This document shows positions 697 to 20,000 of a DNA stretch of 20,000 nt, piece after piece (the first letter of the stretch is position 1; the number at the start of each line of letters is the position of its first letter). The DNA comes from Chloropicon primus. Its lineage: Eukaryota. The notes under the pieces were generated by a model, which saw only the letters and a program-made list of their open reading frames with translations, had not been told where the DNA came from and did not search any database. The translations under genes were made by a program, and so were the position numbers. The DNA is taken from positions 1,483,777 to 1,503,776 of the forward strand of contig CP060756.1 of the NCBI GenBank assembly GCA_023205875.1. The letters run 5' to 3'.

Positions 697-1476
697 TCAC
701 CCCCTGCTGAGATCCTCCGAGGCTTGCCTGAGCTTGCCGAGCTCCTCCGGCGTGGCCTCCCCACTCCCCCTCCACCTGACCTTCCCCCCCTTGTCCACCA
801 GGAAGCAGTACGCCGTCAGCCGATTCGAGATGTCCAGGAGTCGCTGGAACTCCCTCAGGTTCCCGAAAGCGGCCATCAGCTTTATGCCACCCACCGCCGA
901 GCCCTGCTCCCTCTTTGCCATCTCCTTCGCCAGGCCTCCGAGGATCACAGACTTGAGCGGGCCTGCCCTGAACAGGAGCGACTCCACGCAGCAGAGCTCC
1001 AGGACCCCGACCTTGGCCTGGCTCGCCCTCGAGGAGGCCAGAAACCCCTCCGTCCAGGTTCTCAGGTGCCCCTTGGCGTTCTCCCGAAAGTACACCCCCA
1101 CGACTGTCCCGGACGACCCCGCTCCACTCTCGTCGGTGAGGAGGCCAGCCACGTCCACCGGGCCCTTGGGGTGAGTGGGGACCGCGAGGCCGGGGTGGCC
1201 CGTCGAGAAGTTGATCGGATGGGCACTCACGTTCCTAGGGAAGTCCTTGGACGTCCTGTGCGACAGGAGGTGGGGCGAGCAAGGGAACACCTTGCCCCCA
1301 GTATCTCGCATCTCATTCAGCTCGAAAAAGTACCCCTTCTGAAGCCTCTTCTTCTCGAGGTGGTCAAAGTGACGCTCCGGGACGCGGCTCAGTCGCAAGG
1401 CCCACCCCATTCGCGCCCCTCGGCCCCCCGGGTCAAGGCCCAGGCGCCTCACCGACCCCCCCAGCGACTGCAGCAT
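697..1476 (-). CDS. ATP10: Mitochondrial ATP synthase assembly factor ATP10-like protein
   Basis: C-terminal N-x-L-T-A-Y-C-F-L-V-D-x-x-G-K-V-R-W-x-G-S-G-x-A-T-x-E-E-L signature, GYFFELNEMRDTGGK motif, and an Arg-rich presequence-like N-terminus. Confidence 0.8.
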   Translation of the reverse strand: MLQSLGGSVRRLGLDPGGRGARMGWALRLSRVPERHFDHLEKKRLQKGYFFELNEMRDTGGKVFPCSPHLLSHRTSKDFPRNVSAHPINFSTGHPGLAVPTHPKGPVDVAGLLTDESGAGSSGTVVGVYFRENAKGHLRTWTEGFLASSRASQAKVGVLELCCVESLLFRAGPLKSVILGGLAKEMAKREQGSAVGGIKLMAAFGNLREFQRLLDISNRLTAYCFLVDKGGKVRWRGSGEATPEELGKLRQASEDLSRG

Positions 1477-1669: not shown

Positions 1670-3406
1670 TCACTCCACTTTCTTGTACAGCTGCCTGTAA
1701 TGGGTTCCCGCCGTGAAGACGTACTTGAGGAAGAAGGCTCCTCCCCCGAAACGGAACAGGGTCGAGGTCAGCATGGAGGCCGAGGAGGCCAGCTTGAAGG
1801 CCGTCGTCTCGCTGCCCTCCACCAGAGGAGAGTGGCAGGCTGGAATCACCTGCATGTGGGTGGCAACCATGCTCGAAATTGTTGAAAGCCAAAGCATCTT
1901 GGTCCAAAATTTGGAAAAGGTCTGGAGATTCAAGCCCGCGGAGAAGTTCTTCTTCAGGTAGTCCTCGAGGTTGTAGATGATGACTCCGACCGCCGCCATG
2001 ATGATGCCGTTGAAAAGGTGGTGCATGTGCAGGAGAATGGCGTACCTGATGTTCACCTGGTGGATGGGAGGGTGCGAGAGCTTCTCCCTGATGCCTCCGA
2101 CGGTGAAGGGGACGATGAGGCCCGCCATCACGGCGTACGCCCAGAAACCACTCACCACGACAACCAGGAGGCCATGGAACACGAAGTTGGTCCTCACGTT
2201 GTTGGCGCAAGTCTCGAAGGGCTTGTACATCACCTTGGGCAGGTGACCGATGACGGTGGCCACGTGGATGTTGGTGTTGATGGCCGTGAAGTTCACCGTG
2301 CAGAAGAAGAAGATCCTGTCGATCAACCATCCCGCCGTTGCGGGCGCGCCCGCGACCAACGTCCAGCTCGGGTGCATGAAGTGCCCACGCATCTTGGAGT
2401 TCATGTAAAACGCGGTGCTGAAGTACGTGAGCTGAACGGAGATGCTGCTGATGGCGTCGAGCTTAGTCCAAAAGGTCGCCTGCGCCTTGCCCTCGCCCTC
2501 ATCCCTCAAGCAAGGGAAGAGCTGGGCCCCCGCGATGACATACAAGGCGTGCATGGCCATCTGGTCGAACGCTTTCGAGTAAACCTTTCTTCGTCCGGGC
2601 ACCATGGGCTCCACGAAGTACTCTCCTGGGGCAGTGGGGTCTGCAATACCGTGGTTGGCAAGAAGCATCCACGCCCCAAAGAGCATGTAGAAGAAGTTCA
2701 CCCAAAAGTAAAGGAACTCTGCGCTGGCCTTCCTGGCCGCCTCCTTGTTCTTGAACTTGCCAACAAAAGGGCCAGTCATGGACCCACCGTTCATGGACAA
2801 GAGCCCCACGAGGGCAAAGACCAAGACGTAGAGGACGTTGGAGAACCAGTACAGAACATCGATATCGGGTGAGGTCGTGTAGCCCTTCGTAAATCCTCTC
2901 TCGGCCCACTCCAAGTTAATCGTCGACCCACCGTTGAGCAAGGTCATGACGATCTGGTGGAGTATCACCCAGACGTGGGAAAGGGGCAGGAGGAAGTACA
3001 CAAGGGAAACCGTCTTGGGGGATGTGGAGCCCTTTCTCAGCGCACTCTCGAGGCAAGCCGGCATCACCGCCAGGTACACAGCCCTGTAAGGGAGCACGTT
3101 GTTTGCAAGATGGGCAATAACAGACTTGCCACCACCTATCACCGTGACCAAGAAGTTCTCGTACTCCTCTTCCCCCGGCGTCTTCACGCCAAACCCCTTG
3201 GCAACCTGAAACAGTGAGGAGGCCAACACAAAGATTGCAGCCCACAAGTAACACCAGATTCTGCCCCTCGAGGCGTCGTTTGGCTTCATCTTGTGCGCCG
3301 TCAGTGGCAAGGCGGTCATCTTGCACCAAAAGGCGTGGTATCCCCAGAAGAACACCACCACCACGCCAATCACAATGAACAAAGAATCCGTCGCAGGACT
3401 CTCCAT
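1670..3406 (-). CDS. 578-aa polytopic membrane protein (stand-alone module B), homologous to the distal part of the fusion membrane domain
   Basis: ATG at 3406 (MESPATDSLF...). The longer 765-aa ORF-track call runs through a microsatellite and the divergent gene. About 12-13 hydrophobic segments, collinear similarity to fusion residues ~280-815, C-terminus KKVE. Confidence 0.75.
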   Translation of the reverse strand: MESPATDSLFIVIGVVVVFFWGYHAFWCKMTALPLTAHKMKPNDASRGRIWCYLWAAIFVLASSLFQVAKGFGVKTPGEEEYENFLVTVIGGGKSVIAHLANNVLPYRAVYLAVMPACLESALRKGSTSPKTVSLVYFLLPLSHVWVILHQIVMTLLNGGSTINLEWAERGFTKGYTTSPDIDVLYWFSNVLYVLVFALVGLLSMNGGSMTGPFVGKFKNKEAARKASAEFLYFWVNFFYMLFGAWMLLANHGIADPTAPGEYFVEPMVPGRRKVYSKAFDQMAMHALYVIAGAQLFPCLRDEGEGKAQATFWTKLDAISSISVQLTYFSTAFYMNSKMRGHFMHPSWTLVAGAPATAGWLIDRIFFFCTVNFTAINTNIHVATVIGHLPKVMYKPFETCANNVRTNFVFHGLLVVVVSGFWAYAVMAGLIVPFTVGGIREKLSHPPIHQVNIRYAILLHMHHLFNGIIMAAVGVIIYNLEDYLKKNFSAGLNLQTFSKFWTKMLWLSTISSMVATHMQVIPACHSPLVEGSETTAFKLASSASMLTSTLFRFGGGAFFLKYVFTAGTHYRQLYKKVE

Positions 3407-3692
3407 CTTGACAATCCTATGCTTGTTTCTCTTTTGTTTCAAGAGAAATGAGAAGAACGAAGGAACAAACGGACGGAAGGACGGAAGGATCAACTGGTTG
3501 CGCGCGTCCTTGTACGGCTGGCCTTGTGCTGCCTCCCGTACGCTCACGCAGTACGACGCGTGGCCCCCGTCTCCCTGTCGTGGTCTCCCTCCCACCTCCC
3601 TTGGTGTGTGGGGGGGCGTTGATTTTTTTTCCCTCCAAGGGATCGGTTCGGCTTTGCGTTTGTGGGGGATATCCACCAGGAGTCCAACAAAC

Positions 3693-3727
3693 GGCTTGGC
3701 TTGGCTTGGCTTGGCTTGGCTTGGCTT
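3693..3727 (+). repeat. (GGCTT)7 microsatellite
   Basis: Seven perfect pentamer copies in the divergent intergenic region. Confidence 0.95.
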
Positions 3728-3796
3728 GGTGCCTGCCTCTACTCTGCCTTCTTGGGGGGGGGCCAAGGCCACAGCACAGACTAAAAGAGACCACTC

Positions 3797-6700
3797 ATGA
3801 AGAAAAGCAACGTGGAGGACAAGGTGGAACCTCCGCAAGTGGACACCATTGCCAACAGAGGGACGCCCAAGATCCTCAGATTTCACGTGCTGCAGGGGTT
3901 CAATTATCTCTTCGCCGGCGCCTACTTTGCCTACCTCGCACTCTACGGGAGCGAGGCCAAGCCACACTACGTGAGCAAGCTATGGATGCAGCTGGAGGAC
4001 CCGCCACTCAACCCTCTGGAGAGGACGCTCCTGGCCATGTTCTGGCTCTGCCCCTCCTGCATCGGGCTTGGGTACCTCCTGATCCCCAAACATCTGGAGA
4101 GCGTGTACGGTTCCTTCTTGACAATGTCAAGTGGGGTCATACTGGCGTTCCGCCTGGCTCTGACGCCGGCCCAGTACCTCACGCTCATTATTTTTCCTGT
4201 GGACTTTGGTGGAATCCTGTACAAGCTGCGGCTGCTGCGAGAGGAGTTCTGGGCCATTCCCAAGGAGTCCAGAAAGATTTTGTGGAACGTTCCTGAGGCT
4301 GCAGACAGGTCGACCATGTCCAGGCTCCTTGAATTCGAGTGTTACTTCTTTGCGGTGTACCTGTACGTGCTGTCCTTTGTGAGCACGGACGTCCTCCTGC
4401 CGGGGTGCAGCGGCACAAGGGTGGCCCCCTTCTCGAAGATCTTCTTCGGCTGCCAGGCGGTGGTCTTCGTGTACGTTGTGCCTGGCTTGAGGCAGGGGAA
4501 GAACCTGGTGGCCTACATGCTCCTCTGCAACAAGGCCATCGTGTCCTGCTTTTTGATCAAGGGCATCTTCTTTGACGGCGTGATTCCCAACACGATGGGC
4601 GCCTGGGTCCTGCTGCCGTACGTGACGACCTTGGCCTTTGAGTTCCACCTGCTCCTGTGGAAGAGAGTGATGCGGTATTCCATATTTTCTCGCTACGTGA
4701 CCAGAAGGCAAGCTTCGAGCGCAAAGTACTTCAGCATGCTGTTCGCCGTGCTCATCGTCACGTTATCCAATACGTGGTACATCTGCACGGGGAGCGGGCT
4801 GGCCTCGATCAGCAAGACGTACGGAAGTTTCCTTGACAGACTGGCTTTCCTTCCCGGCACGGACAAGAACGCGGATAGAGTGCGCTTCCTCGACGCGATG
4901 CTTGCTGGCGTCCTCTTCTTGTTTGTGATAGCGCTGGAGGAGGTGTTGGCGAAGAAGAACACGGCGAGGGTCGTATCCAGGATCCACTTTGTGCTCACCA
5001 TTGGCGCCTTTACCTTTTCCATCATGTTCAAAGTGTTCTGCAATTTGGACGTCAAGTCGAGTTGGCACGGCACCGTGGCTGCCTCTGATCACAGGGTTGG
5101 GATGCATTGCATCTACTGGGTTGTGAACGCGTTCCTGCGCGTGGCGTTTCCCCTTGCTTGCTTGTTCGTTCTCTGCAACGTGGATGGGCCCATCAGCTCT
5201 TGGACGATCTCGATGAAGGGGCCCAAGAAGACAAAGTCCCGCCTCGCGAGCACGATTGTGGTTCAAAACACCGTCAGGACGGCAATCAAGAGGACTATGA
5301 TCTTCCACGGCATGAGCATGATGATGTTTGCCTCTTTGGCCAGCACGCTGTTCACGTCTGGCTTGCCCACCTTCTTCCCCAACGACAGCATTTTTGGTGG
5401 GCACTACATCATCAAGCCCTTGGTGCCTCACAGCGTCGACTCGCAGCGCTCTCTGTTTTACGTCGGTCTTGTGATTGCGTTTGTTACGGTTATCATGGGG
5501 AGCGCCCTGGCGACCATCGACGGCAGGGCACTGCCAGTGGCCCAGTTTTTGAGCGCGGTGTGGCCACTCTCTGCTTGGGCGTTCTTGCTCGATTCCTGGA
5601 TTTCTTTGGCGTATCAGAGGGGCAGCAAGCTCCACCACTACTTTGAACCCCTTTTCAGGGGCTCCATGGTCGTGAACTCCGAGCATATGACCTCCATAGC
5701 GGTGGTGGGCATGGGCACCGCCGCGCTGAGCCTGATGGTTGTGCTCTTCCTGAGGGTGAGGAGCGTCTCCGTGTACAACAGGAAAGTTCAGGCCCCCTCT
5801 GATTTTGCTGAGGAGCTCTCCCACTCGCACAAGCAGTCGTACATCTTCCACAGCAGCGTCCTGGTCTTCTCTGCGAGCGTCTTCATGCTGAGGTCTTGCA
5901 AGTACGCCGACACGAGCAGCGTGGGTGCCATCTTCAAGGATTACTTGTTCGATGACATCGTGGCTTGCCTGACGATGATGAACTTCGGCTTTGTGATTTA
6001 CGAGTGCAAGGAGGGGCTGCATCACCGGAGTTTCTTGTCCAAGGTCACGTCACTGAAAACGGCGTGGATCCTTTCGGGTTACGTGTTGTTTTCGGCCAAC
6101 AAGGCTCTGGGATACTTTGGTTTCTCCGACACGAGGATCGAGATGGTTTACTTGGTTTCGTACGTTGTGTACAACATTGTGATCCAGTTCCAGTCCGCTC
6201 GAGCTGTGGTCGAGGCGATCTACTTCATCCGCCCGAGCTTCAACTCCAACCTTCCTGCGATCCTCAAGTCCTTCAATGCTTTGAGCAGGAGTCAGACAGA
6301 AGATGTGGACACGGGTCTTGTTGGCGTACCGGTGGATGAGGACAATACAATTGTGCCGAAGAATCTGACAAAGGGTAATCCAAACTGGAAGAACAACTGG
6401 AGGAAGTGCTTCGAAAGAGAGTTTGGGGAAAGGACGCTGGCTGACAATGTCAAGACCTGCTTTCCGATCCCTATGCCTGCTGACAAGTCAGGCTTGAACG
6501 CGCTGAAGCGCAAGGCAGTGTTTGGGTCGTGGAAAAAGTACAAGCGCAAGCCCAAGTCTTTTGTCGGAGCCTGTGGCATGTTTGAAGTGATCGAGAACGA
6601 CAAGGTTCCTCCCACAGTTTTTTTTGAGCCAGGAAAGCGATATTATCTTCGATGCAGACATTCGAACGTGACTTGGGACGATGATGCGGGGTTAGACTTT

Positions 6701-9514
6701 CGGGGTGTTGCACTGAAGTTTGGTCACGGAAGACACAAAAGCGACTTTGATTTGCACATGTCAACTGGAGAGATTCCCCCGTTTGTCAACGTCCCAACCA
6801 TGTTGGAGTACATGGGCAACGCAAAGCGCGACTACATGATGAAAAACCCAATGGTTGCGATGGCTGCGATTGAGGGCCAACGTCGGGCCCCCGAGACCTT
6901 TGCGCAGCTTCACTACTACTCCCACTTTTGCAAGAATTTCTGGAGCATCGATGGAATGAAGAGGTACTGCAAGTTCAGGCTCGTGCCGTACGGAGCCGGC
7001 CCCTTCACTGAAGTAGGCCCAGAGGCGTTCAAGCCAAACGCAGAGGACCAGCAGCGCATCTGCCAAAGTCTTGACGCAGATCATGAGAGGCTGCCCGGCG
7101 AGAAGAGGGAGGAGGACTATCTTCGCAAAGAATTCAGAGCGAGGCTTCAGGAGGACGTCGTTCGTTACAGGCTGCAAATTCAGCTTCGCGAGGCCTCTGA
7201 AGTGGAGACCCACGAGGTCTTCAACCCGTGCAAGAGGTGGGACGCACCTTTCTTGGACATCGGCGTAGTCACCCTCTTTGCGCCTCTCGTCGACTACGAG
7301 ACACAGCAAACGGCGTTTGACTACTTCTCTTGGGGGCCGGACTGCTTGTCCCTGATCAAGCCGGTGGGGCTGCTCGACTACAGCTCCATTAATTGGCTCA
7401 GGGAAACGGCGATGAACGGCCAAGGAAAGGCTCCGTGGAGCCTGATGCTCAGGTCCAAGAAGGACAAAGTCTTCAAGAGTCCGTGCAAGTACGTCATCAA
7501 CGTCCACACGTCTCACGTCATGTTCAGCGGCATCGACGGGAACGCGTACGTCACCATCGTGGGCACCAAGGCGTCGACCACGCAGCTTCTCCTTGAGAAC
7601 GGCGGTTACGACTTCGAGGCGGACACCGTGAGCCGGTTCGTGGTGTACGACGAAGATGTGGGCGATCCGTTGTACTGTTTCCTGCACCACGATTCCAACG
7701 AATCTTGGAGGAAGCGCTTGTTGAAGCTGGACTTCTTCGTGGGTTCCAAGTGGAATTGCGGCAAGGTGCAAGTCACGAGCAAGTCCCCGAGGCACGGAAA
7801 GAAGAAGACGACTTTCTTCGTCTGGAAGTGGCTGTCAAAGGGGGAGCTAGCGTTTGCGGTAGCCGACCGAATCCCTGCCACCCCCAAGGCCCAAGCGATC
7901 TCGAGGGAGCTGTTCAAAAAGTACTTCGAGGACAAGCGGAAAAACTACGCGTGGACTTCCGGGCGTTACCTGCCCAACCACTTGACTTGCCCGACCCACG
8001 CGGACCTCCCGGAGGAGGAGCAATTTTCGGTGGTGAAGCACAAGGACTTCCTTGCCATCAGCATGGGGGCGATGCTGAGCCAGAAGCTGGTGAAGACTTA
8101 CTTGCAGGGCGAAAACCTGAAGAGGATAGAGGATTACTACAGCCTCTACGCGACGGAGCAGCCGGGGAAGCACCTTAAGCACTGGTACACCGACGAGGAG
8201 CTGGGAAGGCAGCTGATGAATGGCGTCCATCCTCTCTGGTTCCGCAAGTGCACCGTGATCCCGCGGAAGTTCAAAGTCGACGATGAGACGCTCTCTGGCC
8301 TTCTCCCCCCCGGAAGAACCCTGGCGCAAGAAATGGAAGCGGGCCACATCTTCATTCTGGACTACGAGATCCTCGAGGGGATTTCAACCGCCCCGGGAGC
8401 CTACGTCGCCACCCCGATAGCTCTGCTCTTCGCGAGCGAGGACACCACCTTGCGCCCGATCGCGATACAGCTGAGCCAGAGCGGAGGTCCCGTGTGGACT
8501 CCGAAGGACTCTCCCCTGGAGTGGATCCTGGTCAAGATGCACCTCGTTTCCGCGGACAGCAACTGCCACCAGATGGTCTCCCACTTGTTCGGCACCCACC
8601 TCCTGATGGAGCCCTGGGCCGTCGCCCTGGAGAGAACCCTGTTCAGCGCGCACCCCGTGTACAAGCTGCTGAAGCCTCATTTCATGTACACCATCGGCAT
8701 CAACACCATCGGCAGGACCACCCTCATCCAGCCGGGGGGGATCGTGGACCGAGTTCTTGCCATAGGCGGGGGGGGGCACATCGAGCTGGTCGCGAAAGCG
8801 TACTCGAGATTCAAGCTGGAAGATTTGAACGTCCCGCTCACCCTGGAAAGGAGGGGAGTGGTGGACAAGGCCGTGCTGAAGAATTACTACTGGAGGGACG
8901 ACGCTCTCCTCCTGTGGGGTGCAATCAAAAAGTACGCTCTAGCGGTCCTCGGAGTGCACTACAAGAGCGACCGGGACGTGAAGGGGGACGACCAAGTGCA
9001 GAGCTTCATCAGAGAGATGAGGTACAGGGGCTACGAGGGCGAGGATCCTGATCAGCACGGTGTTCCGCACACCATCACCACCATCGAGCAGCTGGCTGAT
9101 CTGTGTACTTCCCTTCTCTACTGCACCTCGTGCCAGCACGCCGCGGTGAACTTTGCGATGTTCGATTACTACTCCTTCATCCCGAACAGGTGCCTGTGCT
9201 TGCACGGTCCGCCGCCGACGAAAAAGGGAGAGGTGACGGAGGAGTACATCTGCAGCATTCTGCCGAACCTCGAGCAAAGCTCGCTCACGAGCGCGACGGT
9301 GTACGCGCTCTCCAATTTTTCTAGCGAGGAAGTGTTCATAGGGCACTACAAAGTGGACACGATGGACTTCTCGGAGGAGGACAAGGCCACCATGGACTTC
9401 AAGGACGACCTCGAAGGGATCGAGCGCCGTATCCGGGAGAGGAACTCGCGCCTGGGCATTCACGAGTACAAGTACCTGCTTCCCAGCAGGGTCCCTGCGA
9501 ACATTGCCATCTAG
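3797..9514 (+). CDS. Fusion 1 (1905 aa): multi-TM domain + degenerate catalase-related AOS-like domain + PLAT + lipoxygenase
   Basis: Uninterrupted ORF. The catalase-like part (~6380-7450) has RHSN, RRAPETFAQLHYYS, RYCKFR and RYRLQIQL but lacks the heme His/Asn/Tyr. PLAT lies at ~7480-7860. The LOX has HQMVSHLFGTHLLMEP, YYWRDD, QHAAVNF and C-terminal ANIAI. Confidence 0.93.
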   Translation: MKKSNVEDKVEPPQVDTIANRGTPKILRFHVLQGFNYLFAGAYFAYLALYGSEAKPHYVSKLWMQLEDPPLNPLERTLLAMFWLCPSCIGLGYLLIPKHLESVYGSFLTMSSGVILAFRLALTPAQYLTLIIFPVDFGGILYKLRLLREEFWAIPKESRKILWNVPEAADRSTMSRLLEFECYFFAVYLYVLSFVSTDVLLPGCSGTRVAPFSKIFFGCQAVVFVYVVPGLRQGKNLVAYMLLCNKAIVSCFLIKGIFFDGVIPNTMGAWVLLPYVTTLAFEFHLLLWKRVMRYSIFSRYVTRRQASSAKYFSMLFAVLIVTLSNTWYICTGSGLASISKTYGSFLDRLAFLPGTDKNADRVRFLDAMLAGVLFLFVIALEEVLAKKNTARVVSRIHFVLTIGAFTFSIMFKVFCNLDVKSSWHGTVAASDHRVGMHCIYWVVNAFLRVAFPLACLFVLCNVDGPISSWTISMKGPKKTKSRLASTIVVQNTVRTAIKRTMIFHGMSMMMFASLASTLFTSGLPTFFPNDSIFGGHYIIKPLVPHSVDSQRSLFYVGLVIAFVTVIMGSALATIDGRALPVAQFLSAVWPLSAWAFLLDSWISLAYQRGSKLHHYFEPLFRGSMVVNSEHMTSIAVVGMGTAALSLMVVLFLRVRSVSVYNRKVQAPSDFAEELSHSHKQSYIFHSSVLVFSASVFMLRSCKYADTSSVGAIFKDYLFDDIVACLTMMNFGFVIYECKEGLHHRSFLSKVTSLKTAWILSGYVLFSANKALGYFGFSDTRIEMVYLVSYVVYNIVIQFQSARAVVEAIYFIRPSFNSNLPAILKSFNALSRSQTEDVDTGLVGVPVDEDNTIVPKNLTKGNPNWKNNWRKCFEREFGERTLADNVKTCFPIPMPADKSGLNALKRKAVFGSWKKYKRKPKSFVGACGMFEVIENDKVPPTVFFEPGKRYYLRCRHSNVTWDDDAGLDFRGVALKFGHGRHKSDFDLHMSTGEIPPFVNVPTMLEYMGNAKRDYMMKNPMVAMAAIEGQRRAPETFAQLHYYSHFCKNFWSIDGMKRYCKFRLVPYGAGPFTEVGPEAFKPNAEDQQRICQSLDADHERLPGEKREEDYLRKEFRARLQEDVVRYRLQIQLREASEVETHEVFNPCKRWDAPFLDIGVVTLFAPLVDYETQQTAFDYFSWGPDCLSLIKPVGLLDYSSINWLRETAMNGQGKAPWSLMLRSKKDKVFKSPCKYVINVHTSHVMFSGIDGNAYVTIVGTKASTTQLLLENGGYDFEADTVSRFVVYDEDVGDPLYCFLHHDSNESWRKRLLKLDFFVGSKWNCGKVQVTSKSPRHGKKKTTFFVWKWLSKGELAFAVADRIPATPKAQAISRELFKKYFEDKRKNYAWTSGRYLPNHLTCPTHADLPEEEQFSVVKHKDFLAISMGAMLSQKLVKTYLQGENLKRIEDYYSLYATEQPGKHLKHWYTDEELGRQLMNGVHPLWFRKCTVIPRKFKVDDETLSGLLPPGRTLAQEMEAGHIFILDYEILEGISTAPGAYVATPIALLFASEDTTLRPIAIQLSQSGGPVWTPKDSPLEWILVKMHLVSADSNCHQMVSHLFGTHLLMEPWAVALERTLFSAHPVYKLLKPHFMYTIGINTIGRTTLIQPGGIVDRVLAIGGGGHIELVAKAYSRFKLEDLNVPLTLERRGVVDKAVLKNYYWRDDALLLWGAIKKYALAVLGVHYKSDRDVKGDDQVQSFIREMRYRGYEGEDPDQHGVPHTITTIEQLADLCTSLLYCTSCQHAAVNFAMFDYYSFIPNRCLCLHGPPPTKKGEVTEEYICSILPNLEQSSLTSATVYALSNFSSEEVFIGHYKVDTMDFSEEDKATMDFKDDLEGIERRIRERNSRLGIHEYKYLLPSRVPANIAI
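3873..6311 (+). repeat. 2439-bp direct repeat copy 1 (membrane-domain coding region)
   Basis: Matches 11135..13573 at offset 7262. The only difference I noticed is A4865 vs G12127 (K/E). Confidence 0.92.
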
Positions 9515-9762: not shown

Positions 9763-10650
9763 CTACACCCGCTTCTGCTTCTTCTTGCCAAAGTCCAGGG
9801 CGTGATGCCCGGCCAAGAACAGCAACTCACTGAAAAGGCTCAAGGCGTACGGAAGAAGGACGAAGGAGTACATCGTCCTCGGGACAACCTTATCCACGAA
9901 GACGCCCTTGATCAAAAAGCAGGACACGATGGCCTTGTTGCAGAGGAGCATGTAGGCCACCAGGTTCTTCCCCTGCCTCAAGCCAGGCACAACGTACACG
10001 AAGACCACCGCCTGGCAGCCGAAGAAGATCTTCGAGAAGGGGGCCACCCTTGTGCCGCTGCACCCCGGCAGGAGGACGTCCGTGCTCACAAAGGACAGCA
10101 CGTACAGGTACACCGCAAAGAAGTAACACTCGAATTCAAGGAGCCTGGACATGGTCGACCTGTCTGCAGCCTCAGGAACGTTCCACAAAATCTTTCTGGA
10201 CTCCTTGGGAATGGCCCAGAACTCCTCTCGCAGCAGCCGCAGCTTGTACAGGATTCCACCAAAGTCCACAGGAAAAATAATGAGCGTGAGGTACTGGGCC
10301 GGCGTCAGAGCCAGGCGGAACGCCAGTATGACCCCACTTGACATTGTCAAGAAGGAACCGTACACGCTCTCCAGATGTTTGGGGATCAGGAGGTACCCAA
10401 GCCCGATGCAGGAGGGGCAGAGCCAGAACATGGCCAGGAGCGTCCTCTCCAGAGGGTTGAGTGGCGGGTCCTCCAGCTGCATCCATAGCTTGCTCACGTA
10501 GTGTGGCTTGGCCTCGCTCCCGTAGAGTGCGAGGTAGGCAAAGTAGGCGCCGGCGAAGAGATAATTGAACCCCTGCAGCACGTGAAATCTGAGGAGCTTG
10601 GAAGACTGAGTCTTTGCCAAATGGTCGGGGTCTTTGATTTCGTTCCCCAT
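9763..10650 (-). CDS. 295-aa ~8-TM membrane protein (stand-alone module A), paralog of the fusion N-terminus
   Basis: First 249 codons appear identical to fusion 2, followed by a diverged but still alignable last helix (VVPRTMYSFVLLPY vs VIPNTMGAWVLLPY) and the tail GKKKQKRV-stop. Confidence 0.75.
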   Translation of the reverse strand: MGNEIKDPDHLAKTQSSKLLRFHVLQGFNYLFAGAYFAYLALYGSEAKPHYVSKLWMQLEDPPLNPLERTLLAMFWLCPSCIGLGYLLIPKHLESVYGSFLTMSSGVILAFRLALTPAQYLTLIIFPVDFGGILYKLRLLREEFWAIPKESRKILWNVPEAADRSTMSRLLEFECYFFAVYLYVLSFVSTDVLLPGCSGTRVAPFSKIFFGCQAVVFVYVVPGLRQGKNLVAYMLLCNKAIVSCFLIKGVFVDKVVPRTMYSFVLLPYALSLFSELLFLAGHHALDFGKKKQKRV

Positions 10651-11826
10651 CTTTTGTCTCTCTTTGTGTGTGTGTGAGCCCCTAACCCCCTACTGTCCTG
10701 CACACCCAGGGAGGTGAAAGAGAGGAAAGAGGTGTCCTCCGGAGAGAAAGGTGTTCCCGCGAATTTTGACGATTCCCGCGAATTTTTTTGACGATTCATG
10801 GGACCTCGTCTGTTCATGTGACTCGTCGAACGAGGGTGCTACCCTAGCAACGAAAAAGGTGCGAGTTGTCGGGGAGGAGCGAGGGAAGGGTGTGGGGTGG
10901 ATTGAGGGCGAGGGTAGGGGTCTCAGGCCTCAACGACGAGGACCAACGACACTGTCTGTGGACCAGTGGGATGAAGGTACAGGAGGAGCGAAACCGCTAG
11001 GACAACCAATCACAAGATAAAGGGCAGACCTCTATAAGAGAAAAACAAGCACGCACGCACGCGCAAAGAGAAACAAAAGATGGGGAACGAAATCAAAGAC
11101 CCCGACCATTTGGCAAAGACTCAGTCTTCCAAGCTCCTCAGATTTCACGTGCTGCAGGGGTTCAATTATCTCTTCGCCGGCGCCTACTTTGCCTACCTCG
11201 CACTCTACGGGAGCGAGGCCAAGCCACACTACGTGAGCAAGCTATGGATGCAGCTGGAGGACCCGCCACTCAACCCTCTGGAGAGGACGCTCCTGGCCAT
11301 GTTCTGGCTCTGCCCCTCCTGCATCGGGCTTGGGTACCTCCTGATCCCCAAACATCTGGAGAGCGTGTACGGTTCCTTCTTGACAATGTCAAGTGGGGTC
11401 ATACTGGCGTTCCGCCTGGCTCTGACGCCGGCCCAGTACCTCACGCTCATTATTTTTCCTGTGGACTTTGGTGGAATCCTGTACAAGCTGCGGCTGCTGC
11501 GAGAGGAGTTCTGGGCCATTCCCAAGGAGTCCAGAAAGATTTTGTGGAACGTTCCTGAGGCTGCAGACAGGTCGACCATGTCCAGGCTCCTTGAATTCGA
11601 GTGTTACTTCTTTGCGGTGTACCTGTACGTGCTGTCCTTTGTGAGCACGGACGTCCTCCTGCCGGGGTGCAGCGGCACAAGGGTGGCCCCCTTCTCGAAG
11701 ATCTTCTTCGGCTGCCAGGCGGTGGTCTTCGTGTACGTTGTGCCTGGCTTGAGGCAGGGGAAGAACCTGGTGGCCTACATGCTCCTCTGCAACAAGGCCA
11801 TCGTGTCCTGCTTTTTGATCAAGGGC
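9904..11826. repeat. Long inverted repeat: arms 9904..10666 and 11064..11826, ~397-bp spacer
   Basis: Arms are reverse complements (coordinates sum to 21730). One mismatch seen in the 5' UTR part (10658/11072). Confidence 0.92.
10667..11063. promoter_or_regulatory. Putative bidirectional promoter between the module A gene and fusion 2
   Basis: Head-to-head ATGs at 10650 and 11080. Tandem TTCCCGCGAATTTT(TTT)GACGA at 10754-10797, CCAAT at 11006-11010, TATAA at 11033-11037. Confidence 0.45.
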
Positions 11827-14800
11827 ATCTTCTTTGACGGCGTGATTCCCAACACGATGGGCGCCTGGGTCCTGCTGCCGTACGTGACGACCTTGGCCTT
11901 TGAGTTCCACCTGCTCCTGTGGAAGAGAGTGATGCGGTATTCCATATTTTCTCGCTACGTGACCAGAAGGCAAGCTTCGAGCGCAAAGTACTTCAGCATG
12001 CTGTTCGCCGTGCTCATCGTCACGTTATCCAATACGTGGTACATCTGCACGGGGAGCGGGCTGGCCTCGATCAGCAAGACGTACGGAAGTTTCCTTGACA
12101 GACTGGCTTTCCTTCCCGGCACGGACGAGAACGCGGATAGAGTGCGCTTCCTCGACGCGATGCTTGCTGGCGTCCTCTTCTTGTTTGTGATAGCGCTGGA
12201 GGAGGTGTTGGCGAAGAAGAACACGGCGAGGGTCGTATCCAGGATCCACTTTGTGCTCACCATTGGCGCCTTTACCTTTTCCATCATGTTCAAAGTGTTC
12301 TGCAATTTGGACGTCAAGTCGAGTTGGCACGGCACCGTGGCTGCCTCTGATCACAGGGTTGGGATGCATTGCATCTACTGGGTTGTGAACGCGTTCCTGC
12401 GCGTGGCGTTTCCCCTTGCTTGCTTGTTCGTTCTCTGCAACGTGGATGGGCCCATCAGCTCTTGGACGATCTCGATGAAGGGGCCCAAGAAGACAAAGTC
12501 CCGCCTCGCGAGCACGATTGTGGTTCAAAACACCGTCAGGACGGCAATCAAGAGGACTATGATCTTCCACGGCATGAGCATGATGATGTTTGCCTCTTTG
12601 GCCAGCACGCTGTTCACGTCTGGCTTGCCCACCTTCTTCCCCAACGACAGCATTTTTGGTGGGCACTACATCATCAAGCCCTTGGTGCCTCACAGCGTCG
12701 ACTCGCAGCGCTCTCTGTTTTACGTCGGTCTTGTGATTGCGTTTGTTACGGTTATCATGGGGAGCGCCCTGGCGACCATCGACGGCAGGGCACTGCCAGT
12801 GGCCCAGTTTTTGAGCGCGGTGTGGCCACTCTCTGCTTGGGCGTTCTTGCTCGATTCCTGGATTTCTTTGGCGTATCAGAGGGGCAGCAAGCTCCACCAC
12901 TACTTTGAACCCCTTTTCAGGGGCTCCATGGTCGTGAACTCCGAGCATATGACCTCCATAGCGGTGGTGGGCATGGGCACCGCCGCGCTGAGCCTGATGG
13001 TTGTGCTCTTCCTGAGGGTGAGGAGCGTCTCCGTGTACAACAGGAAAGTTCAGGCCCCCTCTGATTTTGCTGAGGAGCTCTCCCACTCGCACAAGCAGTC
13101 GTACATCTTCCACAGCAGCGTCCTGGTCTTCTCTGCGAGCGTCTTCATGCTGAGGTCTTGCAAGTACGCCGACACGAGCAGCGTGGGTGCCATCTTCAAG
13201 GATTACTTGTTCGATGACATCGTGGCTTGCCTGACGATGATGAACTTCGGCTTTGTGATTTACGAGTGCAAGGAGGGGCTGCATCACCGGAGTTTCTTGT
13301 CCAAGGTCACGTCACTGAAAACGGCGTGGATCCTTTCGGGTTACGTGTTGTTTTCGGCCAACAAGGCTCTGGGATACTTTGGTTTCTCCGACACGAGGAT
13401 CGAGATGGTTTACTTGGTTTCGTACGTTGTGTACAACATTGTGATCCAGTTCCAGTCCGCTCGAGCTGTGGTCGAGGCGATCTACTTCATCCGCCCGAGC
13501 TTCAACTCCAACCTTCCTGCGATCCTCAAGTCCTTCAATGCTTTGAGCAGGAGTCAGACAGAAGATGTGGACATTGCCCTGCTTCAGGTGAATGTTTCCA
13601 GTGCCAAAGCCAAAGATTATTTCACAGGAAAGTTGACAAAGGGTAATCCAAACTGGAAGAACAACTGGGCCAAGCACTACATCGAGAACTTCGGGGAGAA
13701 TGTCTATAATGATGCCACAGCAAAGGAATTTCCTATTCCAATGCCTCCTCCAGATGAATCTGACCTGAAGAAGCAGCAAGGAAAAGCTGCTTTGACGTTC
13801 TTGGTGGCGGCATCAATCTTTCGAAGAAGGCCTACCCACCCCGTGGGCGTTGGTGCTTATGGCATGTTCGAAGTCCTCGACAATGAGAACGTTCCTCCAA
13901 CGGAGTTCTTTGTTCCTGGTAAAATCTTCCACCTTCGTGCAAGGCATTCGAACGGCGTGGGCGTGCAGACAAAGGAGAAGCCAAAGAAATTCGATGACGC
14001 TGCATTGGAGGTCAGGAGTCTTTCCATCAAGCTGGCAAAGGGAAGGGACGACAGCCCATTCGACCTCAATCTGAACACTGGCGAATTTGCGGGCTTTTAC
14101 AACTTGCCCTCTTTCAGGGACTTCGTCTACATGAGCACGATGAATGACCAAAAACTGTTTGACAAGTTTGCTGTGAAGTATCCATCGTGCTTGATGGCAG
14201 AGGTTGATGGCTTCAGGCGCGCCCCAGAAACCTTCGCGCAGCTTCATTACTACTCTCAGACCTGCAGGAGCTTCAACGGCCTGGATGGAAAGAGAAGATA
14301 CTGCAAGTTCAGGGCCGTTCCGTATGGCAAGGGACCTTTCACTGAAGTTGAGGCGGAGCCATTTATGCCTGACGACGACGATCAGAAGCGAATTGTCACA
14401 AAGCCCATGATGTCGCACCACAGGTTGGATGACGAGAAGAGGCCGACGGACTACTTGAGAACTGAGTTCAAGAACAGGGTGACAAACGAGGTCGTGAGGT
14501 ACAGGTTGCAGATCCAGCTGCACGAGTGGCAGGCCAATGACACCGACGAGGTCTTCAATGCAAACAAGGCCTGGGGAACGCCTTTCCACGACATTGGCAT
14601 CATCACCTTGCACACGCCGATGAACGACTACGAGACGGAGCAGACCTCCTTCAACATCGGGAACTGCCCAAGGTGCATCTCTTTGGTGAAGCCCAAGAGC
14701 GCTTTCGATTACCACACCATTAACTGGACAAGAAAGGCGGTGTACGGCAAGTCCTCAAGGATCAGGAGGTACTTCTCGAAGAAGAAGTCTCCTTCCTTTG

Positions 14801-16845
14801 TGAGCCCGTGCCGTTACATCCTGGACTTCCACACCTCCCACGTCGTTTTTAGCGGCATGGATGGTAACGTGCAGGTCACGCTCGTTGGAACCAAGGGCTC
14901 GACGACAGAAATTTTCCTTGAGAACAGCGCCTATGACTTCGAGGTTGACACGGTCAGCAGGTTTGTGGTGTACGACGAGGACATTGGAGATCCCTTGTAC
15001 ATGTTCGTCACTCACGACGCCGACGAGACTTGGAAGAGGAAGCTCTACAACCTCGACTTCATGATACCGAACAAGTGGAACCTCGGCAAGGTCCAGGTCT
15101 CGAGCAAGAGCCCCATATACGGCGACAAGAAGACCAACTTTTACGTCTGGCGCTGGATGAGCAAAGGCGAGCTCGTTTTTGCCATCGCGGACAACATCCC
15201 GGAGGACGACCCCAAGGTGAAGTCCATCCTGCCGCAGCTGCTGGACAAGTACTTCCAGAACAAGAAGTCGATTTACGACTGGAGCTCTGGGGACTATCTG
15301 CCAAACCACTTGTCCGCCAAGGGACACGGCGACCTCCCTGAGGAGGAGCAATTCTCTTCCATGAAGCTCAAGGATTTTGCCGTGTCCGCCATCGAGGGTC
15401 TGAAGAATCAGAAGCTTGTCGGTTTGTACTTCCAAGAAGAGAGCTTCAAGTCCTTGGACGAGTACTACAAGTGCCTGCAGACGCTTCCCCCGTTTCCCCC
15501 CATCGAGAACTGGCACACGGATGAGGAGTTTGGAAGGCAGCTGATGAACGGGACGCATCCTGTCATGTTCATGAGGTGCAGCAAGATCCCGGAAAACTTC
15601 AAGGTCAACGACGTGGTTCTGGAGGGCCTCCTTCCGGCGGGCAAGACCCTGCGGCAGGAGCTGGACGCGGGGCACATCTTCATTATCGACTACAAGGTGC
15701 TGGAGGACATACCTTGCGCGCCCGGTCGGTACTGCTCGTCCGGGCTGGGCCTGCTCCACGCGGACGGGAAGAACTCCTTGAAGCCGATAGCGATCCAGCT
15801 TCACCAGGACGGGGGAGCGATTTGGACTCCCAAGGACAAGCCACTGCAGTGGCTCCTGGCCAAGCTGCACCTTATTTGTGCGGATGGCAACATCCACGAG
15901 ATGGTGACCCACCTCTTCTCCTGCCATCTCGTGATGGAGCCTTGGGCGGTGGCCTTGGAGAGGAATGTGCCCAGCTACCACCCCGTGTTCAGGATGCTGA
16001 AGCCCAACCTGGCTTACACGATCGCGATCAACACGATCGGCAGGAACACCTTGATCGCCAAGGACGGGGTGAGCGACAAGATCCTGTCCATCGGCCAAGG
16101 CGGCCACATCGAGATCATGGCCAAGGCGTACACCTACTTTCAGATGTACCACCTTGACCTGCCCGAGATGCTGGAGAGGAGGGGCGTGATGGACAAGGAC
16201 GTCCTGCCGAGCTACTACTGGAGGGACGACTCCATGGAGATCTGGGGGGCATATCACAAATACGCCAAGGCCGTCCTCACCGCGCACTACGACGGGAAGG
16301 ACTCGGGGGTCAGGCGGGACGCGTTTGTGCAGAACTTGATAAGGGACGTGAAGTTCAACGGGTATTACAACGAGGATCCCGACTACCACGGGGTCCCGGA
16401 CAGCGTGGACACCATAGAGCAGCTGGCGAAGCTCTGCACTTGCGTGCTTTTCCAGACCTCGTGCATGCACGGCTCCGTGAACTTCAGTCAGTACGACTAC
16501 TACTCGTACGTCCCCAACAGGCCCCTGACGATGAGGCAGCCTGTGCCGAGGGAGAAGATCGAGGTGGACGAGGACCTCATCTGCAAGAACCTGCCAGACG
16601 CCAAGGGCTGCGCGAGGAGCATCGCGGCGGTGTGGGCCCTCTCCCAGTTCTCCGACGAGGAGGTCTTCCTGGGTTACTCCAAGATGGTGACCATGGACCT
16701 CCCCTACCAGAAGAGGGCCATCGACGAGTTCAGGAAGGACCTCAAGGCGATCGAGGCCAAGATCGTGGCAAGGAACGAGGGCCTCGGCAAGTTCGGGTAC
16801 ACCTACCTCCAGCCCTCCAGGGTGCCGACCAGCATCGCCATCTGA
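11080..16845 (+). CDS. Fusion 2 (1921 aa): multi-TM domain + intact catalase-related AOS/HPL domain + PLAT + lipoxygenase
   Basis: Uninterrupted ORF. RRPTH (H920), RHSN, LNTGE (N999) and RKAVY (R1218/Y1222) match the coral cAOS motifs as I recall them. PLAT lies at ~14810-15190. The LOX has HEMVTHLFSCHLVMEP, YYWRDD, MHGSVNF and C-terminal TSIAI. Confidence 0.95.
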   Translation: MGNEIKDPDHLAKTQSSKLLRFHVLQGFNYLFAGAYFAYLALYGSEAKPHYVSKLWMQLEDPPLNPLERTLLAMFWLCPSCIGLGYLLIPKHLESVYGSFLTMSSGVILAFRLALTPAQYLTLIIFPVDFGGILYKLRLLREEFWAIPKESRKILWNVPEAADRSTMSRLLEFECYFFAVYLYVLSFVSTDVLLPGCSGTRVAPFSKIFFGCQAVVFVYVVPGLRQGKNLVAYMLLCNKAIVSCFLIKGIFFDGVIPNTMGAWVLLPYVTTLAFEFHLLLWKRVMRYSIFSRYVTRRQASSAKYFSMLFAVLIVTLSNTWYICTGSGLASISKTYGSFLDRLAFLPGTDENADRVRFLDAMLAGVLFLFVIALEEVLAKKNTARVVSRIHFVLTIGAFTFSIMFKVFCNLDVKSSWHGTVAASDHRVGMHCIYWVVNAFLRVAFPLACLFVLCNVDGPISSWTISMKGPKKTKSRLASTIVVQNTVRTAIKRTMIFHGMSMMMFASLASTLFTSGLPTFFPNDSIFGGHYIIKPLVPHSVDSQRSLFYVGLVIAFVTVIMGSALATIDGRALPVAQFLSAVWPLSAWAFLLDSWISLAYQRGSKLHHYFEPLFRGSMVVNSEHMTSIAVVGMGTAALSLMVVLFLRVRSVSVYNRKVQAPSDFAEELSHSHKQSYIFHSSVLVFSASVFMLRSCKYADTSSVGAIFKDYLFDDIVACLTMMNFGFVIYECKEGLHHRSFLSKVTSLKTAWILSGYVLFSANKALGYFGFSDTRIEMVYLVSYVVYNIVIQFQSARAVVEAIYFIRPSFNSNLPAILKSFNALSRSQTEDVDIALLQVNVSSAKAKDYFTGKLTKGNPNWKNNWAKHYIENFGENVYNDATAKEFPIPMPPPDESDLKKQQGKAALTFLVAASIFRRRPTHPVGVGAYGMFEVLDNENVPPTEFFVPGKIFHLRARHSNGVGVQTKEKPKKFDDAALEVRSLSIKLAKGRDDSPFDLNLNTGEFAGFYNLPSFRDFVYMSTMNDQKLFDKFAVKYPSCLMAEVDGFRRAPETFAQLHYYSQTCRSFNGLDGKRRYCKFRAVPYGKGPFTEVEAEPFMPDDDDQKRIVTKPMMSHHRLDDEKRPTDYLRTEFKNRVTNEVVRYRLQIQLHEWQANDTDEVFNANKAWGTPFHDIGIITLHTPMNDYETEQTSFNIGNCPRCISLVKPKSAFDYHTINWTRKAVYGKSSRIRRYFSKKKSPSFVSPCRYILDFHTSHVVFSGMDGNVQVTLVGTKGSTTEIFLENSAYDFEVDTVSRFVVYDEDIGDPLYMFVTHDADETWKRKLYNLDFMIPNKWNLGKVQVSSKSPIYGDKKTNFYVWRWMSKGELVFAIADNIPEDDPKVKSILPQLLDKYFQNKKSIYDWSSGDYLPNHLSAKGHGDLPEEEQFSSMKLKDFAVSAIEGLKNQKLVGLYFQEESFKSLDEYYKCLQTLPPFPPIENWHTDEEFGRQLMNGTHPVMFMRCSKIPENFKVNDVVLEGLLPAGKTLRQELDAGHIFIIDYKVLEDIPCAPGRYCSSGLGLLHADGKNSLKPIAIQLHQDGGAIWTPKDKPLQWLLAKLHLICADGNIHEMVTHLFSCHLVMEPWAVALERNVPSYHPVFRMLKPNLAYTIAINTIGRNTLIAKDGVSDKILSIGQGGHIEIMAKAYTYFQMYHLDLPEMLERRGVMDKDVLPSYYWRDDSMEIWGAYHKYAKAVLTAHYDGKDSGVRRDAFVQNLIRDVKFNGYYNEDPDYHGVPDSVDTIEQLAKLCTCVLFQTSCMHGSVNFSQYDYYSYVPNRPLTMRQPVPREKIEVDEDLICKNLPDAKGCARSIAAVWALSQFSDEEVFLGYSKMVTMDLPYQKRAIDEFRKDLKAIEAKIVARNEGLGKFGYTYLQPSRVPTSIAI
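11135..13573 (+). repeat. 2439-bp direct repeat copy 2
   Basis: Matches 3873..6311; identity ends abruptly after GATGTGGACA. Confidence 0.92.
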
Positions 16846-17109: not shown

Positions 17110-18402
17110 ATGGAGGTAGGCGGGGGAGGGACCACGCACCTCGGAGGCAAGAGGGACAGAAGGAGACTCGCTCTCGCATTCACACTCACACTCGCACGCC
17201 CCCGGGTGGAGTCCTTGGCGAGGACGAGAGCGAGAGCGAGAGCGAGAGCGAGTGGCCTCCCTGCAGGAGGTGCGAGGGAGAGGGAGGGCACGAGGAGGTC
17301 TTCGGGGGGTCCGTTCGAGGGACTCAGCCGCGTGGGCCTGGGGACGATGCTGTTCGGGACGACGACGGATAGGGAGGAGGCCTTCCGGCTCCTGGACCGG
17401 GCAGTGTCGCACCACGGCGTGAACCTCCTGGACACGGCGGAGATGTACCCCGTGCCACAGAGCGCGGGCACGCACGGGCTGAGCGAGGTCATCCTGGGGG
17501 ACTGGTTCAGCGCCAGGGTGGGGAGGGGGCGGGTCTTGCGCAGGGAGGACGTGGTCGTGGCCACGAAGGTCACCGGGCCGTCCGGCCAGATGCCTTGGAT
17601 CCGGGGAGGACCCGAGCGCCTGGACGCCGAGGCCATCATCGAGGCGTGCGAAGGGAGCCTGGCGCGGTTGGGCCTGGACCACGTGGACATCCTGCAGCTG
17701 CACTGGCCCGACAGGTACGTCCCCATGTTCGGCGAGTCGCTGTACAGGCCCGGGAGCAGGTACGAGGACCGCGTCCCCCTGGAGGAGCAGATGGAGGCCC
17801 TCGGGTCGCTGGTGAGGCAGGGGAAGGTCAGGAGGGTCGGCCTGAGCAACGAGACGCCCTGGGGGCTGACGAGGTGCTGCGACTTGAGCCGGTACGGCGG
17901 CTTCCCCAGGATTCACTACCTTCAGAACTCCTACAGCCTCCTCTGCAGGACGTTCGACTGCGGCGGCCTGGCGGAGTGCTGCTGGGAGGAGGGGGTGGAG
18001 CTCCTGGCCTACTCCCCGCTGGCCATGGGACTCCTCACGGGGAAGTACCTCCCACCGGAGGGCGAGGGGGCGGACCTCGGGGGCTGGGGCCCTCCCGGGG
18101 CCAGGCTGAACCTGTACAAGGGGAGGTACTCGGAAGCCGAGTCGAGGTACGAGAGGACCAGAGAGGTGACCAGGGCGGTTGCGAGGTACGGCGACCTGGC
18201 GGGGAGGCACGGGATGACGCTGACGGAGCTGGCCGTGAGGTTCGTGCTCTCGAACGAGCGCGTCGGGTGCGCGGTCCTTGGCGCGACGTCCTGCAGCCAG
18301 CTGGACGAGCTCCTTGACTACGCGGGGAGGGGCGCGCTGGACTCGAGGATACTGGACGAGATCGACGGCGTTCACAGGGCGGCTCCGAACCCAACTCCCT
18401 GA
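17110..18402 (+). CDS. Aldo-keto reductase, Tas-like
   Basis: GLGTM, LDTAEMYPVP, ATKV, LHWPDR (D/Y/K/H tetrad), GLSNETPWG, QNSYSLL and LLAYSPLAMGLLTGKY. The Arg/Ala-rich N-terminal extension may be a targeting peptide. Start codon is uncertain. Confidence 0.92.
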   Translation: MEVGGGGTTHLGGKRDRRRLALAFTLTLARPRVESLARTRARARARASGLPAGGAREREGTRRSSGGPFEGLSRVGLGTMLFGTTTDREEAFRLLDRAVSHHGVNLLDTAEMYPVPQSAGTHGLSEVILGDWFSARVGRGRVLRREDVVVATKVTGPSGQMPWIRGGPERLDAEAIIEACEGSLARLGLDHVDILQLHWPDRYVPMFGESLYRPGSRYEDRVPLEEQMEALGSLVRQGKVRRVGLSNETPWGLTRCCDLSRYGGFPRIHYLQNSYSLLCRTFDCGGLAECCWEEGVELLAYSPLAMGLLTGKYLPPEGEGADLGGWGPPGARLNLYKGRYSEAESRYERTREVTRAVARYGDLAGRHGMTLTELAVRFVLSNERVGCAVLGATSCSQLDELLDYAGRGALDSRILDEIDGVHRAAPNPTP

Positions 18403-19194: not shown

Positions 19195-19492
19195 GGTGGC
19201 TTGGATGCACCACGGAAAGCTTGGATGATGCGACTGTGTCTTTCTCTTAGGCTTCTTTTGTTCTCCGGCTCCTTTCCTTGGCCAAGTCGTCCTTCCTTTC
19301 TTCCTCGGGCAAACCCTACTCAAGGCACTTCGGACCCACGAGAGGGCCTTTTAGGCGTTAGGTTTTGGGACTCCCAAGGCTTTAGGAAACGCGGTGGCTT
19401 GGATGCACCACGGAAAGCTTGGATGATGCGACGGTGTCTTTCTCTTAGGCTTCTTTTGTTCTCCGGCTCCTTTCCTTGGCCAGGTCGTCCTT
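19195..19492 (+). repeat. Subtelomeric 100-bp direct repeat (19195..19294 and 19393..19492)
   Basis: Offset 198, two mismatches seen. The spacer contains degenerate telomere motifs (TTTTAGG, TTAGG, TTTTGGG, TTTAGG). Confidence 0.9.
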
Positions 19493-20000
19493 TAGGTTTA
19501 GGCTTTTAGGTTTGTAGGTTGTTAGGTTGTTTAGGTTGTTGGGTTGTTAGGTTGTTAGGTTGTTAGGTTTTAGGTTTAGGTTGTTAGGTTTTAGGTTTTA
19601 GGTTTTAGGTTTTAGGTTTAGGTTTAGGTTTTTAGGTTTTAGGTTTTAGGTTTTAGGTTTTAGGTTTTAGGTTTTAGGTTTTAGGTTTTAGGTTTTAGGT
19701 TTTAGGTTTTAGGTTTTAGGTTTTAGGTTTTAGGTTTTAGGTTTTAGGTTTTAGGTTTTAGGTTTTAGGTTTTAGGTTTTAGGTTTTAGGTTTTAGGTTT
19801 TAGGTTTTAGGTTTTAGGTTTTAGGTTTTAGGTTTTAGGTTTTAGGTTTTTAGGTTTTAGGTTTTAGGTTTTAGGTTTTAGGTTTTAGGTTTTAGGTTTT
19901 GGGTTTTAGGTTTTAGGTTTTAGGTTTTAGGTTTTAGGTTTAGGTTTTGGGTTTTAGGTTTTAGGTTTTTAGGTTTAGGTTTTAGGTTTAGGTTTTAGGA
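19491..20000 (+). repeat. Telomere array (TTTTAGG)n with a proximal variant zone (TTGTTAGG, TTTAGG)
   Basis: About 500 bp of T/G-rich heptamers, with the G-rich strand running 5'->3' to the window end. Confidence 0.96.

Follow-up and report, generated by a model that had tools for sequence, protein, structure and literature searches.

A predicted oxidase fold, free and fused, in a putative oxylipin gene cluster of a picoalga

A gene cluster close to a chromosome end of Chloropicon primus encodes two large fusion proteins, in which a membrane domain precedes oxylipin enzymes, together with two smaller proteins that correspond to the two parts of this membrane domain. The locus raises the question of what the membrane domain is and what its free and fused copies do beside these enzymes. 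We analyzed a 20,000-nucleotide stretch of contig CP060756.1 (hereafter the window), starting from an earlier note that had read the cluster as a Rosetta-stone pattern, i.e. one fused membrane domain made of two stand-alone modules. What is chiefly new here is that an algal oxylipin cluster contains, both free and fused, a predicted oxidase fold whose metal site is apparently stripped.

The gene cluster and its fusion enzymes

The window contains, in order, ATP10 (697-1476, minus strand), gene B, fusion F1, gene A, fusion F2 and an aldo-keto reductase gene. The cluster is subtelomeric, lying at most 3 kb from the chromosome end, where a TTTTAGG-type array occupies positions 19491-19999. Its features are as follows:

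1670..3406, minus strand: gene B, 578 aa; an N-terminal helix and a predicted 12-helix core (~41-574) of the heme-copper oxidase/NO reductase (HCO/NOR) fold, from the open reading frame and the model
2027..2029, minus strand: codon of B His460, in the tenth core helix, opposite Leu717 of F1 in the alignment
2372..2374, minus strand: codon of B His345, after core helix VII, in the invariant motif G-x3-H-P-[ST]-W
3407..3796: spacer of 390 bp between B and F1, which lie head-to-head; ~410 bp with the same layout in the related locus L001
3797..9514, plus strand: fusion F1, 1905 aa
3797..6292, plus strand: F1 membrane domain, residues 1-832, predicted to consist of module A (~16-290) and a B-like HCO-fold module (~290-815)
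6383..7405, plus strand: F1 catalase-like allene oxide synthase (AOS) domain (1u5u, E 1.1e-47)
7490..9514, plus strand: F1 PLAT and lipoxygenase (LOX) domains, from Pfam, with iron-ligand motifs and C-terminal Ile
9763..10650, minus strand: gene A, 295 aa, ~8 helices; 9904-10650 equals F2 codons 1-249 and 9763-9903 is a diverged tail of its own
10651..11079: spacer of 429 bp between A and F2, which lie head-to-head; flanked by an inverted repeat (9846-10676 and 11054-11884)
11080..16845, plus strand: fusion F2, 1921 aa; membrane domain as in F1, intact-looking AOS domain, PLAT, lipoxygenase

Both fusions share one domain order: a membrane domain of ~830 aa, a coral-type AOS, PLAT and lipoxygenase. 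They are publicly annotated as lipoxygenase or allene oxide synthase-lipoxygenase, and the B orthologue as hypothetical. The AOS domains are closest to coral AOS (1u5u), with an E-value of 4.7e-59 for F2 and the weaker value listed above for F1. In F2, the motifs PTHPVG, LNTG and RKAVY align with their coral counterparts and supply the distal Thr-His and Asn and the proximal Arg/Tyr of the AOS site. F1, and likewise P0004, has other residues in place of the distal His, the distal Asn and the proximal Tyr, all three of which are kept in the F1-type protein P0019. As a result, the F1 AOS is likely to be inactive. Judged from these residues, the loss of the site is likely to be lineage-specific and F1 a LOX-only paralogue.

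The lipoxygenase domains appear intact by motif: HxxxxH, HxxxN and the C-terminal Ile occur in all six fusion sequences checked. For the PLAT-LOX region of F2, the best match in the PDB is coral 8R-LOX (E 2.1e-112), followed by 5-LOX. The fusion lipoxygenases carry a Gly at a position that is also Gly in coral 8R-LOX, so the hydroperoxide is likely to be R-configured.

Some further features of the locus were noted. The aldo-keto reductase gene after F2 (17110-18402, plus strand; PF00248, E 7.6e-59) could encode an enzyme that uses lipid aldehydes or ketones as substrates. The four cluster genes have a GC content of 0.55-0.57 (GC3 0.78-0.81), lower than that of the genes on either side, ATP10 and the aldo-keto reductase gene (0.66-0.69; GC3 0.86-0.90). 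A 100-bp direct repeat (19195-19294 and 19393-19492, 98%) is situated just inside the telomeric array.

Free and fused membrane modules

The similarity of B to the fusion is weak in pairwise comparison. BLASTP aligns 370 aa at 19.5% identity, with an E-value of 6e-4 without composition correction and 0.32 with it. Alignment scores gave z values of 3.6-6.1, and the real score was reached by 0-3 of 500 shuffles per setting (full, 10-residue and 20-residue windows; three scoring schemes; 500 shuffles each). When the B profile was aligned with the fusion profile by HHalign, the match reached 96.4% (E 1.2e-9, 452 columns), compared with at most 1.46% for all 25 window-shuffled profiles and 0.05% for the reversed profile. 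Larger alignments raised this to 97.6% (E 2.9e-12), placing B 25-514 on F1 286-770. This upholds the proposal of the earlier note, made by eye, that the 578-aa protein is collinear with fusion residues ~280-815, and the shuffle test that it suggested comes out in favor of the match when applied to profiles. Six of its eight matched sequence blocks recur in the same register; the other two (YENFL/YGSFL and SKMRGHF/SKLHHYF) are correctly located, with an offset of 3-4 residues. On this profile evidence, B and fusion residues ~290-815 are distant homologues, i.e. paralogues, with an identity of 15-19%.

Gene A differs in kind. As had been claimed, its 295-aa product covers the start of the fusion, up to residue ~286, and does so as a near-identical stretch and not as a remote match. 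A and B are unrelated to one another (HHalign 0.19%). The Rosetta-stone pattern is thus found in its strict form, with two unrelated free proteins that correspond to different parts of the fusion in more than one lineage. The view of A and B as the two free halves of the fusion stands as regards the split and fused pattern, which is conserved, but the halves are unequal, A being near-identical to its fused counterpart and B remote. In addition, the last helix of A and the first helix of B both map to one fusion helix (~266-293), which is A-like up to a Glu and B-like beyond it; the joint therefore falls inside a helix that is present in both free proteins, and A plus B does not simply equal the fusion.

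Free A, free B and full fusions are all present in relatives, with sizes of 279-301 aa, 575-593 aa and 1904-1933 aa, respectively. The search for B gave 11 matches in all, including three full-length close relatives (46-54%) and the more distant P0020 (34%), P0026 (28%) and P0028 (32% over a part). Three more fusions were found, with 63-71% identity over the membrane region, and the B-like fold is fused to AOS-PLAT-LOX in all five long matches. At least three lineages have retained both free genes. At locus L001, the B orthologue lies head-to-head with a fusion and is followed by ATP10, as in the window; this linkage was confirmed in at least one of 592 candidate stretches. In C. roscoffensis, B and the fusion have consecutive accessions (WZN61161.1 and WZN61162.1). 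For P0016/P0085, P0071/P0082, P0034/P0048 and P0038/P0052, the longest contigs are equal in length (4426, 8784, 27401 and 21575), a hint that A and the fusions may be on the same contigs as B in relatives. P0028 (526 aa) is unusual: it matches well only to B 282-474, lacks the last helix, has a different N-terminal half and is possibly bacterial. Searches for its relatives gave none among the candidate stretches from GTDB genomes (0 of 33 and 0 of 113) and none in plasmids beyond one match at E 8.

The copies of the membrane domain within a genome are far more alike than the enzymes attached to them. Codons 1-249 of A show no nucleotide differences from F2, the differences being confined to codons 250-295, the older tail of the gene. 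F1 and F2 differ by one nucleotide over codons 20-831, with catalytic domains that are 49-65% identical. The membrane domains of the two fusions are 99.6-100% identical in the window. For those of a second lineage the figure is 94-100%: the identity of P0018 to P0019 is 100% for module B and 94% for module A, and falls to 53-65% for the catalytic domains. Likewise, the free A protein P0084 matches P0018 at 100% over the head and 51% over the tail. Catalytic domains group by paralogue (71-85% among F2-type, 56-77% among F1-type), and membrane domains group by species. A is 93-100% identical to fusion module A within species and 70-82% between species. The fusion membrane domains and A are thus homogenized within species, a pattern of concerted evolution for which we infer gene conversion as the simplest explanation. 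The locus provides a clean case of concerted evolution that is limited to particular domains.

Several details of these stretches were recorded. The homogenization breaks off abruptly where domains meet (F2 codons 20-831, A codon 249), the homogenized stretches being 3867-6400 with 11129-13668 and 9846-10676 with 11054-11884. At the single difference between F1 and F2, Lys357 of F1 corresponds to Glu in F2 and also in P0004, the F1 of another assembly. A loop of module A (~140-160) occurs in two types, both of which are seen in free A and fusion copies of several lineages (P0008, P0010, P0011, P0012, P0018, P0019, P0057, P0065). Conversion in patches, chimeric assemblies or an ancient dimorphism could each account for this.

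In several lineages, free A proteins (279-301 aa, for example four entries of 286 aa) have their own tails, which indicates that A is an old gene. No family was found for A in Pfam or among PDB sequences. The Atlas search gave A only leads below 0.9, with eukaryotic clusters of ~290 aa at 0.87-0.88 and a weak lead to one cluster at 0.83, in which 18% of members have Erg28. No two-fold internal repeat was detected in A by HHalign (0.1%), and none of 70 candidates from viral contigs was a relative of A.

Predicted fold and candidate heme site

The fold of B was predicted from an alignment of 13 sequences, giving a model with 13 long helices (pLDDT 79.6, pTM 0.83). The model of F1 1-832, whose alignment contained no B sequence, has low confidence (mean pLDDT 47.2). 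In a fold search with the B model (VIA, 48,161 chains), the top 10 matches are all HCO/NOR catalytic subunits (Z 15.8-19.4, rmsd 4.1-4.9, 399-437 residues aligned), led by 4xyd (cNOR) and 3mk7 (cbb3) at Z 19.4; the eleventh row, an unrelated protein, has Z 9.5. The model of F1 288-816 retrieves the same ten entries (Z 17.2-20.5, 386-428 aligned), with the next row at 10.3; this segment coincides with the one delimited in the earlier note. The separately predicted models therefore match the same fold, and not the unrelated folds that the earlier note had named as counter-evidence. It is very probable, on these models, that B and fusion residues ~290-815 share a predicted 12-helix HCO/NOR core. 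Foldseek matches the B model to qNOR 3ayf (E 2.4e-4) and gives E 0.56 for the fusion model. Most of the module A part of the fusion model has pLDDT values under 50, and the matches of the fold search scarcely extend over this part.

The relationship is invisible to sequence methods. No COX1-type match was found at E ≤10 in Pfam (14 proteins) or NCBIfam (9 rows), the PDB sequence search gave no family for B and no match to styrene oxide isomerase, and HHalign of the B family against a five-member HCO/NOR profile gave 0.09%, within the range of 20 shuffles. What is proposed is hence a shared predicted fold and not family membership. The Atlas search found no relative of B (best 0.75; the Atlas's own model has pLDDT 0.46 and TM ≤0.29 by query), and the viral fold search gave no match. 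A weak internal repeat is present in B (40-210 against 211-390, HHalign 82.9%). A UniRef entry labels the B orthologue “TLC domain-containing protein”; we reject this label, which has no Pfam match and no support in the fold search.

Respiratory HCO/NOR members have six conserved histidines, located in helices II, VI, VII (two) and X (two). The NorB sequence used for comparison has them at 53, 186, 237/238 and 326/328. In the B family alignment the invariant residues include Gln282, His345, Trp348, Trp422, His460, Gly474 and His517, and the histidines among them, His345, His460 and His517, are the only three that are invariant (nine of nine rows, representing seven distinct proteins) where the HCO/NOR pattern has six. 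By helix order in the model, His460 is in core helix X, His345 just after VII and His517 at the end of XI. No helix II histidine is common to the seven main B members, and His462 occurs in two of the seven. A helix VI histidine (position 280), next to the invariant Gln282, is found in three of the seven, the distant P0020, P0026 and P0028, and is absent from all four Chloropicon-type B proteins.

On this basis, the low-spin electron-entry heme looks lost in B, which may retain one open heme site. In the model, His460 would be the axial ligand of a high-spin heme and His345 a distal-pocket residue; given that there is no sequence-level HCO/NOR link, this ligand equivalence rests on helix order and not on residue-level superposition. 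The fused module differs at these positions: His460 aligns with Leu717, the His345 position is His in two of five fusions, and none of the three invariant histidines of B is invariant in the fusions. The absence of these histidines, together with the low identity of B to the fused module, fits divergence of function better than a spare subunit copy. Other histidines (397, 437, 504, 545, 676, 678 and 685) are invariant in all five fusions, and the fused copy may therefore not be cofactor-free; as the fusions are 62-100% identical to each other, this invariance says little. Both families are shallow, with seven distinct B members and five fusions.

Proposed pathway and known systems

A role of B and the fused module in the oxylipin pathway is probable. 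We give an even chance to a fuller reading, in which the four genes form a membrane-bound oxylipin pathway, with free B as a one-heme, non-respiratory enzyme and the fused copy as a membrane scaffold. In this pathway, the lipoxygenase would produce a fatty-acid hydroperoxide at the membrane and the intact catalase-like domain of F2 would convert it to an allene oxide. B would bind one five-coordinate heme via His460, with His345 and Gln282 lining the pocket. Its substrate would be the hydroperoxide or epoxide, which it would reduce or rearrange in the manner of styrene oxide isomerase, with its His-bound ferric heme in a related four-helix unit. The fused copy, with Leu at the His460 position, would serve as an anchor for the enzymes and supply them with lipid. 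A would likely be a shared structural subunit, which would explain its near-identity to the fusion.

That B catalyzes the step after AOS is a tentative suggestion. A more specific version is likewise speculative: B would represent a one-heme HCO-fold family in picoalgae that acts after AOS, as an allene oxide isomerase or cyclase with no relationship to its plant counterpart, in a channelled complex with module A and its catalytically stripped fused paralogue.

Other explanations share parts of this evidence. Free A and free B may bind each other and so reconstitute the membrane domain as a hetero-oligomer, which may or may not include the fusions, as the earlier note had suggested. This is possible but doubtful, and would be compatible with B as an enzyme. 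The A-then-B order of all five fusions and the retention of both free genes in at least three lineages speak for it, and the higher identity of A to module A within species than between them is expected with a shared partner or surface. However, gene conversion between the inverted repeats would give the identity of A to the fusion without selection too, B and the fused module share no more than 15-19% identity, and the last helix of A and the first of B map to a single fusion helix. The likeness of B to the fusion could also be one of hydrophobic composition, with A as an assembly error or a dead 5' duplicate. Although BLASTP of B against the fusion is not significant with composition correction, and A, close to a telomere, matches F2 at 100% over 249 codons, this explanation is largely refuted and very improbable: the HHalign match of 97.6% far exceeds that of shuffles (≤1.5%), the same fold is predicted from separate alignments, the 46-codon tail of A is its own, and free A in other lineages stops at the same place.

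It is rather unlikely that both copies are cofactor-free lipid-handling scaffolds, as FLAP (a MAPEG protein) is for 5-lipoxygenase, with the histidines of B in a structural role. Single units do match MAPEG structures (6ssr, Z 8.2; 4bpm, Z 7.8-9.0), the LOX domain is closest to coral 8R-LOX and then 5-LOX, and the fused copy works without His460. YgdD and MAPEG trimers are also described as resembling the HCO core in the available text of PMC4602095, which cites Pei et al. 2014. Yet His460, His345 and His517 are invariant down to ~20% identity and lie in the metal-ligand helices of HCO/NOR proteins. An improbable alternative places B nearer its ancestors, as a redox enzyme that takes electrons from an external donor to reduce O2, NO or lipid peroxide and protects the membrane during lipoxygenase activity. 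The best structural matches are indeed cNOR and cbb3 (Z 19.4), and histidines are kept in helices VI, VII and X of P0020, P0026 and P0028. Against this, no helix II histidine is conserved and His462 is present in two of seven members, so the electron-entry heme looks lost; the helix VI histidine is absent from all four Chloropicon-type proteins, and no subunit II or cytochrome c is encoded within the window.

The known role of full-length HCO-fold proteins is that of respiratory O2/NO reductases. If the preferred reading, a membrane-bound oxylipin pathway with B as a one-heme enzyme, is true, the fold would have been put to a new use here, nuclear-encoded and joined to a lipoxygenase pathway. 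The models suggest that the oxidase fold has likely been reused for making oxidized-fatty-acid signals. Pei et al. (2014) are said to have defined families of HCO homologues, one of which may already include B. B is a testable candidate for the further processing of coral-type allene oxides and for oxidized-lipid production in picoalgae. The available text of an Ostreococcus preprint calls the oxidized-lipid pathway unresolved (10.64898/2026.02.10.705097). In the literature covered, which included few subscription papers, no report of this cluster or of an HCO-fold lipoxygenase partner was found.

The closest structural comparison is with subunit I of the HCO superfamily (cNOR NorB 4xyd, cbb3 CcoN 3mk7, qNOR 3ayg, Cox1/CyoB; PF00115), with which B and the fusion share the predicted 12-helix core over 386-437 residues at Z 16-20. 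As in these proteins, B has a histidine in the tenth helix and one after the seventh. In contrast to them, B has no sequence signal, three invariant histidines instead of six and no low-spin heme pair; it is nuclear-encoded in an alga, fused to or beside oxylipin enzymes, and has no partner redox subunit in the window.

MAPEG proteins (FLAP, LTC4 synthase, MGST2; 6ssr, 4bpm, 5i9k) resemble B in their four-helix units and three-fold packing, and are membrane partners in lipoxygenase pathways. They use glutathione or no cofactor. MAPEGs are small homotrimers, unlike B, and their matches are to single units at middling Z (7.8-9.0). Styrene oxide isomerase StyC (8pnu) offers a working analogy for B, as a His-bound heme that acts on an epoxide. 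Its four-helix unit matches B 401-566, the last four helices (Z 9.2, rmsd 4.1), a score that, like those of MAPEG, is in the range common for helical bundles in the fold search (Z 8-10). By helix order in the model, His460 would fall in the second helix of this unit. In the available text of PMC11374702, the His58-bound ferric heme of styrene oxide isomerase acts as a Lewis acid on the epoxide, with a distal network of Tyr103, Asn64 and Asn99. StyC has three hemes in a homotrimer of 155-residue units, whereas B is a single chain of three unlike units with one candidate site.

The catalytic part of the fusions has its counterpart in the coral AOS-8R-lipoxygenase (Plexaura homomalla; 1u5u, 3dy5, 2fnq), which shares the AOS-PLAT-LOX order with F1 and F2. 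Coral and cyanobacterial fusions of AOS-LOX type are covered in the available text of PMC6627107. Compared with the coral enzyme, the algal fusions add an N-terminal membrane domain of ~830 aa and ~20 helices, and the alga has two paralogues, one with a degenerate AOS site, as well as free copies of both membrane modules.
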